Of a DNA stretch of 54,967 nt, positions 26,826 through 32,479 are shown piece after piece. Positions within the stretch are counted from its first letter, which is position 1; each line of letters begins with the position of its first letter. The translations under genes were made by a program, and so were the position numbers. The notes below the pieces were generated by a model, which was not told the DNA's origin, searched no databases, and saw nothing but the letters and a program-made list of their open reading frames with translations. The stretch is from Phycisphaerales bacterium (GTDB taxonomy: Bacteria > Planctomycetota > Phycisphaerae > UBA1845): NCBI GenBank assembly GCA_013140575.1, contig JABFSN010000060.1, positions 1 through 54,967 on the forward strand. Direction: 5' to 3'.

Positions 26826-26879
26826 TCGACTTGCGCCCGATCCACGATCCGATTCAAGCCGATGGCTCGGCGGAAAACC

Positions 26880-26912
26880 GCGTCTTTCCGAGCCGCGACC
26901 GTAAGGGAGCGG
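26880..26912. repeat. left arm of 33-bp perfect inverted repeat flanking the T5orf172 operon
   Basis: gcgtctttccgagccgcgaccgtaagggagcgg is the exact reverse complement of 29238-29270. Confidence 0.7.
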
Positions 26913-28430: not shown

Positions 28431-29113
28431 TGTTTGTCTCCGCCGGTCGAAGGGGAGTTACCTGTAATGATTGTGTGCCAAGTCGTTCGGCCGCATTCGG
28501 AACAGTGGATTTGTTCAAGGAACATTGCCTTCGGCGCCTCTGCTATTGCGCCGCAGGCAAAGCACTTTGCGGAAACGACCTGGCCCAGTCTCGTCGCTAT
28601 CAAAACCCGATACGATGCCCCGTCCCTTTCCCGGAAAACCAGACCCATGTGTTCCCACGATTCGGCGATCGACCGCCACCGGGCTTGGTCGCCGCCAAGT
28701 TGTTGGCGAAGCTCATCCTGTCGGACGTGCGGATGCTGTTCGAGGTGATGCCACATGCGGTGTGCGTCCCACATGAACGCCCGCGCCTGCGCAAGACGAT
28801 CCGCAAGATCGTCGGACGCGAACTTGTCGATGCGGCGGTATTCGGCGAAGAGCGCCTCCATTTTGTTCAATGTCTCGAAGTCGAACAGCAAGGGGGCGAC
28901 ATTGAGAACCATGTCGATGGCCTCGACGCTCTTGAATTCCCGCTCTTCCCAGCGGCGCTCGTACTGCATCATTCCGTCGATGTACGGCCACGAATCGACG
29001 GCTCGGCGAAGGGCCTCACGGTACAATCCCTGCCTCAGCGCGCTTTGCGCGTCAGACATGAGCTTGTGGTACGCGTCGCGATGGGCCTCCAATTCCGCCT
29101 TCTTCATGGCCAT
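28427..29113 (-). CDS. hypothetical protein with predicted winged-helix and C-terminal zinc ribbon
   Basis: 228 aa, helical N-terminus, a wHTH-like segment and CFACG...CSECG (two CxxC pairs). Its stop overlaps the start of the T5orf172 gene by 4 nt, so it is the first gene of the operon. Confidence 0.5.
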   Translation of the reverse strand: MAMKKAELEAHRDAYHKLMSDAQSALRQGLYREALRRAVDSWPYIDGMMQYERRWEEREFKSVEAIDMVLNVAPLLFDFETLNKMEALFAEYRRIDKFASDDLADRLAQARAFMWDAHRMWHHLEQHPHVRQDELRQQLGGDQARWRSIAESWEHMGLVFRERDGASYRVLIATRLGQVVSAKCFACGAIAEAPKAMFLEQIHCSECGRTTWHTIITGNSPSTGGDKQ

Positions 29114-29237
29114 GGCGTCACTCCGCGCTGCATGACAATTCGATGGGTGGTGCGATGTTACGCAATCGGAGAGACTTTAGCCCGGCGCTCGATGGCAGGC
29201 AACGCCGCAATGCGTACTGCGGGAGTGGTCGGCGTGC

Positions 29238-29270
29238 CCGCTCCCTTACGGTCGCGGCTCGGAAAGACGC
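29238..29270. repeat. right arm of 33-bp perfect inverted repeat; followed by tandem cggctcggaaag x2
   Basis: ccgctcccttacggtcgcggctcggaaagacgc is the exact reverse complement of 26880-26912. Confidence 0.7.
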
Positions 29271-29304
29271 GGCTCGGAAAGCTGGGAATAGCCCCGAACC
29301 GGCG

Positions 29305-29362
29305 GGCTCATTGCTACGGTCGCGGAATCGCCGGCGGGTCGTCGTGGCGGCCGGTGGAGCGA
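29305..29362 (-). pseudogene. remnant of the 3' end of a DUF1559 gene (duplicate of the 30092-30138 sequence)
   Basis: 29324-29357 is 34/35 identical to 30102-30135, the last codons plus stop of the intact DUF1559 gene. On the minus strand it reads ...RHDDPPAIPRP*, against ...RNDDPPAIPGT* in the intact gene. Confidence 0.5.
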
Positions 29363-29376
29363 GATCATCGGGCGAT

Positions 29377-29763
29377 TCAATAGGGCACTTCCAAGGTGAT
29401 CGACTCAAATCGTGAAAAATGCTTCTTGTCGAGCGATACGACGGTGGCTCCGATCCGTGCGGCGGTCGCGGCAATGAGGCAATCGAGCCAACCGACGCCG
29501 GTCGAAAGGCGCAATCGTCGTAGCGACTCAAGCGACGTGGTCATATCGTCCGGCGTTGGACGGTGAACGTGAAACGTCGCTACCAAACGATCGATCGCCG
29601 CGAGTTCGCGGGTGTCTCTCGCGCCTGAAATCAGCTCGGCCACAACCGCGGAATGGGTCGTCAGGCGAGTGGCGCGGTATCGGGAATGAAGGTACAGTTG
29701 CGCGAGGTTCCTCCCTCGTAGAAAGTCGACGAGTATGGAGGTGTCGATCAACAATTCACTCAT
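29377..29763 (-). CDS. vapC: PIN-domain toxin VapC
   Basis: 128 aa. LLIDTSILVDFLRG N-terminal acidic motif, and PIN-fold acidic residues distributed through the length. Confidence 0.8.
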   Translation of the reverse strand: MSELLIDTSILVDFLRGRNLAQLYLHSRYRATRLTTHSAVVAELISGARDTRELAAIDRLVATFHVHRPTPDDMTTSLESLRRLRLSTGVGWLDCLIAATAARIGATVVSLDKKHFSRFESITLEVPY

Positions 29764-29980
29764 TCATTCCCTCATGTTCGATGGTTGCACGAAGCCGGCG
29801 GGAAGTTTCAACGGAATCGGTCATGTCCGTTCGGTCCCGCCAAATGCCGAAAGCGGGATGCGTTTGAAAGGGACTCCCGTCTTCCTCAATGAGCGAGACC
29901 TCGACGACCGCGCCATCTGGCAACGTCGCCCCTTTGTTCATCACGACGACCCCGTTCTGAACGACGCCTCGATAAGTCAT
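29756..29980 (-). CDS. vapB: VapB-like antitoxin (small PIN-associated antitoxin family)
   Basis: 74 aa, YRGVVQNGVVVMNKGATLPDGAVVEV. Overlaps the vapC start by 8 nt. Confidence 0.6.
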   Translation of the reverse strand: MTYRGVVQNGVVVMNKGATLPDGAVVEVSLIEEDGSPFQTHPAFGIWRDRTDMTDSVETSRRLRATIEHEGMNE

Positions 29981-30091
29981 AGAGATCGCCTCCCTTGACG
30001 CGCATTATATCACACAGCCACCCGTCGAGGCCACCGCATTGCGAATATGTCCGCCCCGAAAGGCCGCGAAACAGCCGCAGCAAGCAGCGGA

Positions 30092-31000
30092 TTACGTCCC
30101 CGGAATCGCCGGCGGGTCGTCGTTGCGGCCGGTGGGGGTGAACCAGCGGTTGGTGGGCGGGTCTTCGACGGGTTCCAGATCGACGTAGGCGCCGCTGGGC
30201 AGAATGCGGTAGCCGAACTGTTGCGGCGTGCGGGCTTCGGCGTGTCCGTCGCAGAAGATGGCGTTGGCCTTGCCTTCGTGACGTGGATCGACCGACGTGC
30301 GCGGCGAGCCCACGTCGCCCGAGCCGCGGTCGGAGACGGCCGTCAGACGCGGCGGGTCCAGCGTCCAGCCGTGATTGCCGGCTTCGGCGAAGTCGGTGCC
30401 GTTATTGTGGTAGGGCTTGCGCTGGTCGAGCGGCTTGCCTGCCGCCGTGCCCAGGCAGTCGGTGCCCATCACCATGCCGGAGACGTTGACGATTCGCGAG
30501 CGGATTACGGGGAAGTTATGAAACTGCCCGGCCGTCTTGCGGGCGTTGCCGAGGAAATGGTGGTTGTAGCCGAAGGCGTGGTTCCGTTCGTCGATCCATT
30601 GCGACGCGGTGGGGCACTGGTAGACGACGGAATCGTAATCCTGCCGGTCGTCGGTGATGCTGGGCTTGTCGAACGCGAAGATTCCCACCTGCCGGCCCAT
30701 GGTCGCCACCCAGCGCGGGCGATATTTCAGGCCGTTGCCGATCTCGTACCAGTTGAGCGGATTGGTCTTGCCGCCGGGTTCGTTGCCGTACCGCCCGGGC
30801 AGGCAGACGTCCTTGTTTTCGTCGGCGTACATGTGCCAGCCGTGGGACAATTCACGCAGATGGGACATGCACACCAGCCGTTTGCCCTGCTTCCGCGCGC
30901 CGGACAGCGATGGCAAAATGATGCTCAACAAAAGCCCGAGGATGGAAATGACCACGAGCAGTTCGATCAGCGTAAACGCCCGGCGGCTTCGTGCATTCAT
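30092..31000 (-). CDS. DUF1559 (H-X9-DG) prepilin-type N-terminal cleavage/methylation domain protein
   Basis: Start MNARSRRAFTLIELLVVISILGLLLSIILPSL. C-terminal HEGKANAIFCDGH gives the H-X9-DG motif. Confidence 0.85.
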   Translation of the reverse strand: MNARSRRAFTLIELLVVISILGLLLSIILPSLSGARKQGKRLVCMSHLRELSHGWHMYADENKDVCLPGRYGNEPGGKTNPLNWYEIGNGLKYRPRWVATMGRQVGIFAFDKPSITDDRQDYDSVVYQCPTASQWIDERNHAFGYNHHFLGNARKTAGQFHNFPVIRSRIVNVSGMVMGTDCLGTAAGKPLDQRKPYHNNGTDFAEAGNHGWTLDPPRLTAVSDRGSGDVGSPRTSVDPRHEGKANAIFCDGHAEARTPQQFGYRILPSGAYVDLEPVEDPPTNRWFTPTGRNDDPPAIPGT

Positions 31001-31233: not shown

Positions 31234-32397
31234 TCACGCCACCTTCGCGCAGACTTTCTTCGCCGCGTCGGTCAAGTCGTCGGCGGGGATCAACTGCGGA
31301 ATCCGTGCTTCCTTCAACATCGGACGGGCCCGGTCTACATTCGTGCCTTCCAATCGCACGACGACCGGAACTTTGAAACCCACCTCGCGGGCGGCCGCGA
31401 TGAGCGCTTCGGCGATTACGTCGCACTTGGCGATGCCGCCGAAAATGTTCACCAGAATGCCGCGGACGTTTGCGTCCGATAGAATGATGCGGAAGGCCTC
31501 GATGGCCCCGTCGCGGGTGACCGATCCGCCTACGTCGAGAAAATTCGCCGGTTGGCCGCCGTGGAGCTTGATGATGTCCATCGTCGCCATCGCCAGACCG
31601 GCGCCGTTGACCACACACCCGATGTTTCCGTCGAGGGCGATGTAGGACAGGTTGGCGGCCTTGGCCCGCAGTTCGTTTGCGTTTTCTTCCGCCGGATCGA
31701 ACATCTCCTTCAGACGAGGCTGGCGGAAAAGGGCATTGTCGTCGAAGTTCATTTTGGCATCGATGGCTACGATCTTCCCGTCCTTCGTTCGTACGAGCGG
31801 GTTGATCTCGGCCAGCGCGCAATCGTATTTGTAGAACACGTCCACCAGGCCTTGCAGGACGCGCTTCACGCCCGCGACCTGCTGCTTGTCGGTCAGGCCC
31901 AGCGCCCGGATCAACCGGGCGGTATGGAAACCCATCAAGCCCAGGTGCGGATCGAGCCATTGCTTGACGATGGCGTCGGGATTGCGGGCCGCGACCTCCT
32001 CGATCTCGACGCCGCCTTCGCGCGACACCATCACCACCGGGCAGCGCTTGGCGCGATCCACGACGACGGCCGTGTAGTATTCCGCGTCGATGTCGACGGC
32101 GGCCGCGACGAGCAGTTTCTTGACCGCGATGCCATCGGGACCGGTCTGCGCCGAGACCATGCGATTCTTGAACATGAAATCGGCCGCGGTGCGGACCTCG
32201 TCCGGGCCGCGGCACAGCTTGACGAAACCAGCCTTGCCGCGTCCGCCGGCGAAAACCTGGGCCTTGACCACGACCGTGCCGCCGATTTTGCGGTAGGCGT
32301 CGAGCGCCTCGCTGGAATTCTCGACGACTTCCGACGGCGGCACGGTTACGCCGGCGTCGGCCAACAACTGTCGGGCTTGGTATTCGTGGATTTTCAT
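31234..32397 (-). CDS. sucC: succinyl-CoA synthetase (ADP-forming) beta subunit
   Basis: MKIHEYQARQLLADAGVTVP ATP-grasp N-terminus. Full-length, about 388 aa. Confidence 0.9.
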   Translation of the reverse strand: MKIHEYQARQLLADAGVTVPPSEVVENSSEALDAYRKIGGTVVVKAQVFAGGRGKAGFVKLCRGPDEVRTAADFMFKNRMVSAQTGPDGIAVKKLLVAAAVDIDAEYYTAVVVDRAKRCPVVMVSREGGVEIEEVAARNPDAIVKQWLDPHLGLMGFHTARLIRALGLTDKQQVAGVKRVLQGLVDVFYKYDCALAEINPLVRTKDGKIVAIDAKMNFDDNALFRQPRLKEMFDPAEENANELRAKAANLSYIALDGNIGCVVNGAGLAMATMDIIKLHGGQPANFLDVGGSVTRDGAIEAFRIILSDANVRGILVNIFGGIAKCDVIAEALIAAAREVGFKVPVVVRLEGTNVDRARPMLKEARIPQLIPADDLTDAAKKVCAKVA

Positions 32398-32479
32398 ATC
32401 GACTCCTGTTCCTGATTTCGGCGGCGGCATCGGATTCTGCCCGACGGGCAGTCAATTCGCAAATCTGTTCCGCGCGGGT

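Follow-up and report, generated by a model that had tools for sequence, protein, structure and literature searches.

Little has been documented about how lone toxin–antitoxin (TA) pairs spread among bacterial chromosomes in the absence of plasmids, phages, and transposons. The question is raised by a locus in the window analyzed here, a 54,967-nucleotide (nt) contig of a Phycisphaerales metagenome-assembled genome (MAG), to whose ~55 kb all window-wide counts given below are limited. In this window a vapBC-like TA pair lies between two copies of the 3′ end of a neighboring gene for a prepilin-like protein, and the arrangement presents the clean footprint of one event. An earlier note on this DNA had proposed that the pair was inserted at the end of that gene and that the gene end was duplicated in the process. 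Our analyses suggest that this is probably what happened, by an event resembling a rearrangement known from restriction-modification (RM) systems as insertion with long target duplication.

The repeat itself is a real direct duplication. Its two copies, at 29315-29357 and 30093-30135, are 43 nt each, are spaced 778 nt apart, and are identical at 39 of 43 positions (39/44 when the last base of the stop codon is included); they share uninterrupted matches of 22 and 11 nt. The earlier note had located the repeat correctly but had described it as 34/35 identical; the 34-mers at the coordinates that it gave (29324-29357 and 30102-30135) match at 33 of 34 positions, and the duplication extends beyond them to the full 43 nt. 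When up to three mismatches are allowed, the 34-mer occurs exactly twice in the window and in none of 100 dinucleotide shuffles. Both copies are read on the minus strand. The right, gene-proximal copy supplies the functional last 13 codons and part of the stop codon of the open reading frame (ORF) at 30092-31000, the host gene, and reads ...TGRNDDPPAIPGT-TAA in frame, in agreement with the earlier assignment of this copy to the gene end, which had allowed for 11 codons. The left, distal copy reads ...TGRHDDPPAIPRP-TAG, with its stop in a register identical to that of the right copy and no ORF upstream, so that its description as an orphan also stands. Five mismatches separate the copies over the 44 positions, four of them within the last three codons and the stop. 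Because these uninterrupted matches are shorter than the k-mer length of 31, and because an independent assembly, Logan contig L001 (SRR11487824), runs through both copies and the cassette between them at 100% identity with the window, the possibility of an assembly artefact was rejected. The earlier note had also recognized that the repeat might simply be a conserved coding motif of the gene family. The tail motif GRxDDPPxxP is indeed conserved across the orthologue family of the host gene, but this holds at the protein level and cannot account for a 39/43 DNA match 778 nt away.

What lies between the copies is a 735-nt segment (29358-30092) that has no terminal inverted repeats and reads, like the host gene, on the minus strand. 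It consists of a 111-nt leader (29981-30091), a gene for a 74-amino-acid (aa) vapB-like antitoxin candidate (29756-29980), vapC (29377-29763), which overlaps vapB by 8 nt and encodes a 128-aa PIN-domain toxin (PF01850, E = 1.6e-15), and 19 nt past the vapC stop. These gene coordinates bear out those first reported, and the upstream noncoding stretch, then put at about 120 nt, is the 111-nt leader. The leader carries an extended −10-like sequence, TGATATAAT, read by eye at 30004-30012 on the minus strand, and a putative ribosome-binding site, AAGGGAGG, read from the sequence directly before the vapB ATG; a scan of 29100-30300 for two-hexamer consensus promoters and for terminators found nothing. 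The acidic residues D7, E43, and D94 of VapC are invariant in the homologue alignment, and the protein scores 52.7 bits against the NCBIfam VapC model, below the 80-bit cut-off. The 74-aa protein has no match in Pfam, NCBIfam, PADLOC, or PDB sequences and falls in no recognized DNA-binding antitoxin family. It is, however, 42-58% identical to the small upstream ORFs of three homologous PIN cassettes, with which it shares a conserved PAFGxWxDR motif, and in these three other contexts the toxins of the homologous pairs are 44-57% identical to VapC. On this context we accept the 74-aa gene and vapC as a putative antitoxin–toxin pair, which would be expected to have TA activity.

The cassette differs in composition from its surroundings. 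The GC content at third codon positions (GC3) is 0.65-0.66 in the cassette versus 0.80-0.81 in the host gene and sucC, and overall GC content dips across ~27.7-30.0 kb of the window. Among 5.8 billion proteins the nearest VapC relatives are 57%, 50%, and 44-46% identical, with none above 57%, and the insert has no match to plasmids, phages, or viral contigs in a vector search. The homologous vapBC cassettes on contigs L019, L021, and L022 are not flanked by direct repeats. The closest vapBC relatives, those whose VapC proteins are 57% and 50% identical, adjoin tsaD divergently on Phycisphaerae-type contigs (L019, 1473-2076; L020, 1438-2041; L021, 3421-3988). Unlike the copy in the window, the tsaD-adjacent vapBC is probably in a stable, vertically inherited position.

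The state of the locus without the cassette is seen in a relative. Contig L002, 3,152 nt long and assembled from SRR22387929, starts with sucC and carries an orthologue of the host gene, P0001. In the window, sucC is likewise the upstream neighbor of the host gene (31234-32430, minus strand). Because the sucC products are 99% identical (88% at the nt level) and the host-gene products 94% identical (89% at the nt level), we take L002 to be the orthologous locus of a sister species. There the gene tail is present in a single copy, the stop codon is followed after ~40 nt by a repetitive extragenic palindromic (REP)-like motif, CTTTCCGAGCCGCGACC, in which the contig ends, and the 71 nt past the stop contain no sequence like the vapB leader. 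In the window the CTTTCCGAGCCGCGACC element lies beyond the orphan copy, not beyond the functional one. The simplest reading of these sequences would be that a gene end followed by a REP element is the ancestral arrangement, and that it survives in the window as the orphan and its REP element. The alignment with related loci that the earlier note had called for thus yields a single copy and no vapB leader, within the limit of 71 nt past the stop.

The same comparison speaks to the origin of the functional gene end. The single tail of L002 is identical to the two window copies at 36 and 35 of 44 positions, whereas the window copies are closer to each other (39/44) and have in common three states that are absent from L002. 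Small as these counts are, they favor duplication of the resident target over arrival of a foreign tail. The possibility that the gene end was imported, leaving a mosaic gene, was rejected, as sliding identity to L002 stays at 93-99% over nt 631-900 of the host gene and shows no drop in the 3′ third relative to the rest.

Searches for further comparators returned no other close relative. The host-protein cluster has two members, and P0001 (94%) is the sole relative above 71% identity among 5.8 billion proteins; a scan of genome contigs for the host gene gave a best match of 71%. A hypothetical protein of the ancestral allele, bearing the orphan tail, is absent from 15 billion sequences, and a clade-specific DNA pattern had no matches in metagenome contigs. 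Thirteen more distant orthologous loci were recovered from GTDB genomes, and in none of them was vapBC, a second tail, or a tandem paralog found. No synteny downstream of the host gene is conserved at these distant loci, and they are therefore unusable as empty sites.

Because the gene end of L002 runs into the REP element with no vapB leader between them, the comparison supports an insertion, as first proposed, and we think it probable that the vapBC module inserted at the 3′ end of the host gene with a 43-nt target duplication. In this scheme, a horizontally acquired vapBC with its own leader would have entered the chromosome 43 nt before the end of the gene. Duplication of these 43 nt of target would have left the host gene with an intact end, the right copy, and would have displaced the original end, with its stop and REP element, to a position beyond vapC, so that the left orphan copy would be the preinsertion gene end remaining in place. 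The incoming linear DNA might have been joined to a widely staggered break, or two template switches might have occurred 43 nt apart, with the gap then filled in. Postsegregational killing by the TA pair could subsequently have favored its retention. The polarity of the event would be insertion in the lineage of the window rather than loss in that of L002.

Insertions with long target duplication are defined as units of <20 kb flanked by direct repeats of >30 bp, without transposase or integrase, whose repeat is single copy in a related genome (Furuta, Abe and Kobayashi 2010, NAR 38:2428, PMC2853133). The cases described in Haemophilus influenzae are RM systems bounded by 46-bp repeats, identical at 43-45 of 46 positions, that overlap gene 3′ ends; the units are low in GC, carry no mobility genes, and have an empty site in a sister genome (PMC2853133). 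For RM systems the class is attributed, in the citing paper, to Nobusato et al. 2000, Gene 259:99 (ref. 37 of PMC2853133). The present locus has flanking repeats of >30 bp, a complete system within 735 nt and thus far below 20 kb, a single-copy empty site, and lower GC. A further mark of the class is that the repeat is absent from the rest of the genome; the count here, two copies of the 34-mer, covers the 55-kb window. The cargo by which the class is defined, an RM system, is replaced by a PIN toxin and its antitoxin, and we therefore file the locus, by analogy, as one that may work like the class with a different cargo. The resemblance extends to the small selfish unit, the placement of the repeats at a gene 3′ end, and the lack of mobility genes. 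Unlike the RM cases, the cargo is a type II TA pair, although RM and TA systems are both postsegregational killing modules; the host is a Phycisphaerales MAG and not a naturally competent pathogen; and the comparator is a sister species with ~89% nt identity rather than a conspecific strain. A literature search within the searchable library for insertion of a classical TA module with long target duplication found none, which is weak evidence.

When did the insertion take place? The earlier note had called the rearrangement recent, which is doubtful. With 5 mismatches in 44 nt, the copies argue against a very recent event. On the assumption of a neutral orphan and a constrained gene copy, and with a divergence between the window and L002 of 11% overall and ~21% at third positions, a rough estimate would place the insertion at an age of the same order as the split between the two lineages, with a very wide error.

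Several observations weigh against the scheme of insertion with long target duplication. For the class as such no mechanism has been established by experiment, and this includes the way in which the RM units were joined. The mismatches between the copies, 5 in 44 positions, could equally mean that the copies never were identical, for example if one gene end was borne by the donor. L002 is the sole close comparator, and its sequence extends for 71 nt beyond the stop. The stretches that separate stop and REP element do not align between the window and L002, and the downstream marker that the two loci share is REP-like and dispersed, not a unique sequence. Finally, the searches covered 55 kb, and a recombinase acting in trans, or further copies of the 34-mer, may be present elsewhere in the genome.

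A recombinase of this kind is central to another explanation, raised in the earlier note, under which the repeats are attachment (att) sites, attL and attR. Here a minimal cassette of 778 nt, whose attP mimics the gene 3′ end, would have integrated site specifically by means of a recombinase encoded elsewhere, or the unit would be the remnant of a decayed island. In length, the repeat (43 nt, with uninterrupted matches of 22 and 11 nt) falls within the range of att cores, a position at a gene 3′ end where the reading frame is restored is characteristic of integrative elements, and the mismatches are concentrated toward one end, as they would be at the boundary of an att arm. Against this, a test of 39 ORFs spread over the contig, those within and adjoining the unit among them, gave no Pfam match to an integrase, recombinase, or transposase, the kind of gene that the earlier note had suggested looking for, and no tRNA was found. 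The noncoding DNA between the genes and the repeats amounts to just 111 and 19 nt, which leaves no room for a decayed island. Related cassettes are absent from plasmids, phages, and viral contigs, and the relatives that do exist, none above 57% identity, lack flanking repeats. A search for the repeat and for sister cassettes, also suggested at the time, turned up the two copies of the 34-mer in the window and no cassette sharing it. Moreover, the copies resemble each other (39/44) more than they do the L002 orthologue (36/44 and 35/44). We regard site-specific integration as unlikely. A donor-derived gene end would be expected had the cassette been captured with the help of homology. DNA from a close relative, carrying vapBC behind the same gene, could have recombined homologously at one end and been joined illegitimately at the other, 43 nt before the stop; in a variant, a circle carrying the gene end entered by a single Campbell-type crossover and the right copy came from the donor. 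Such capture gives exactly the observed geometry, and it accounts for copies that were nonidentical from the start and for a donor stop kept in frame. Against it, no other genome is known with the gene–vapBC arrangement, divergence from L002 is not raised in the 3′ part of the gene (nt 631-900, as above), and the right copy, far from looking foreign, shares derived states with the left. Taken jointly, the two versions of capture seem to us quite improbable.

The earlier note had offered, as its own alternative, a deleted second paralog, the left copy being the last remnant of a tandem DUF1559-like gene and its similarity a product of the conserved C-terminal motif. DUF1559-type genes are often multicopy in Planctomycetota, and the tail motif is conserved family-wide at the protein level, as noted. 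The subfamily to which the host gene belongs is nevertheless single copy at 14 of 14 other loci, with no tandem paralog and no second tail, and the nearest homologue besides that of L002 is ≤71% identical, too diverged for a 39/43 DNA match. Furthermore, the homology breaks off right at the border of the cassette, and the same REP element comes after the orphan as after the single gene of L002. Decay of a paralog is thus scarcely credible, and with no tandem copy or second tail at any of the 13 distant loci or in L002, a tandem-paralog remnant was rejected. The remaining idea concerns the agent of insertion: vapBC might be a minimal self-inserting addiction cassette, in which the cassette or its PIN nuclease helps to make the staggered break, or in which a mimic of the gene end is used by a host recombinase. 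It is modeled, by analogy, on the RM endonucleases that are suspected of driving their own insertions with long target duplication, and we consider it very unlikely.

Other known arrangements resemble the locus in part. Like integrase-mediated islands at the 3′ ends of tRNA or protein genes, it has repeats that bracket foreign DNA and a target whose 3′ end is regenerated; unlike them, it has no integrase among the 39 ORFs of the 55-kb contig, a unit of 0.78 kb, and no sister elements that share the repeat. Chromosomal TA islets provide another comparison. The ccdO157 islet, between folA and apaH in Escherichia coli, is reportedly a lone pair that is present in some related genomes and absent from others and has no mobility genes, and the window likewise has a lone TA pair between conserved housekeeping genes without mobility genes. 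To our knowledge, no description of chromosomal TA islets such as ccdO157 mentions that the end of a flanking gene is duplicated over a long stretch. TA-carrying integron cassettes are similar in being small, promoter-proximal cassettes with a TA pair. They differ in having a structured attC repeat and IntI, neither of which has a counterpart here; what is repeated in the window is part of the host gene. An RNA element or attC-like structure was considered and rejected: there is no Rfam match, and the stretch downstream of vapC that holds the orphan copy and the REP element, 29225-29376, folds no better than shuffled sequence (z = +1.57).

The host gene (30092-31000, minus strand) encodes a 302-aa protein, accession NOT00132.1 in a MAG with locus tags HOP29_*, that has a prepilin N-terminal methylation motif (PF07963, E = 4.3e-7) and a C-terminal H-X9-DG motif (TIGR04294, 20.1 bits, which passes the cut-off of 19), and it belongs to a well-conserved orthologue family of the Phycisphaerae. 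The earlier note had labeled it DUF1559. Its homologues are so named by NCBI, and several carry PF07596, but the host protein scores 15 bits against this Pfam model, under the 23.3-bit gathering cut-off, and “DUF1559-like” is therefore the accurate label. The gene does not lie within a pilus or type II secretion system operon, and its neighbors differ at every distant orthologous locus. A secretin and two T2SSE-type ATPases are encoded on the same contig (20318-22177 and 42905-46031).

The REP-like element downstream of the orphan copy (29238-29281, minus strand) follows it after a gap of ~48 nt and consists of a 35-nt arm (29238-29272) and a partial tandem 14-mer (29268-29281). The 14-mer, CGCGGCTCGGAAAG, is present in tandem as two exact copies 15 nt apart at 29253-29281, on the outer edge of the REP arm, and at the corresponding position L002 has a different partial reduplication. 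The arm, CCGCGTCTTTCCGAGCCGCGACCGTAAGGGAGCGG, forms a perfect 35-nt inverted pair with 26878-26912 on the plus strand, the two (26878-26912 and, on the minus strand, 29238-29272) being 2,325 nt apart. The pair encloses a minus-strand operon of lower GC3 with two genes, one for a 228-aa protein of no known family and the other for a T5orf172/GIY-YIG protein of 492 aa with a strong match to the anti-phage protein PD-Lambda-1 (E = 1.5e-76), and this looks like a defense operon in the “loop” of a REP doublet. Beyond the inverted REP partner lies a gene for a PMT_2 glycosyltransferase on the minus strand. No homologue of the PD-Lambda-1 protein above 68% identity was found elsewhere, hence none is on record for the L002 organism. 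The 28-nt core of the REP element, TTTCCGAGCCGCGACCGTAAGGGAGCGG (26885-26912 and 29238-29265), has at least 120 exact matches in Joint Genome Institute (JGI) metagenome contigs from soil, peat, and sediment (L023-L142). Among the matches listed, inverted doublets with spacers of 9-52 nt make up 58 of 63 close pairs, and the flanks are not conserved. The core has no Rfam family, and a literature search for the REP sequence found nothing. Such exact conservation across so many unrelated contigs is unusual, and the element is more striking than the 43-nt repeat. The short-read Logan contigs L001 and L002 both end inside the REP element, at window position ~29243, which is consistent with an interruption of de Bruijn assembly by a 35-nt inverted repeat that exceeds k = 31. 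It is also a hint that two or more copies of the element are present in the L002 organism.

Other defense and TA genes are found in the window and in L002. In L002 the spacer between sucC and the host gene contains, at 357-2142, a HEC-01 pair composed of an AAA ATPase (E = 4e-127) and a DUF4276 protein (E = 2.5e-48); the pair is not in the window, and no direct repeats flank its insertion in L002. With vapBC and PD-Lambda-1 in the window and HEC-01 in L002, the neighborhood of the host gene forms a small hotspot for defense and addiction modules. The window also contains a second TA pair, an MNT-type nucleotidyltransferase (51342-51743) and a HepT RNase (51715-52089), followed by a perfect hairpin with an 18-bp stem at 52130-52170, and an ORF at 2761-3123 with a HicB-like antitoxin domain (E = 9e-6, just under the Pfam cut-off). 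Neither the MNT/HepT locus (51342-52089) nor the HicB-like locus (2761-3123) of the window has long flanking direct repeats.

What is new in the locus is the type of cargo and the phylum; the kind of rearrangement was already known, and this is not a new kind of element. As one example with one comparator, it is useful for annotation and for the question of TA mobility and leaves current understanding unchanged. If the cassette did insert itself, lone TA pairs could colonize the 3′ ends of genes without any mobile-element vehicle. The insertion with long target duplication that we favor suggests that the route described for RM systems is used by classical TA modules as well, and that Planctomycetota are among the bacteria in which it is at work.

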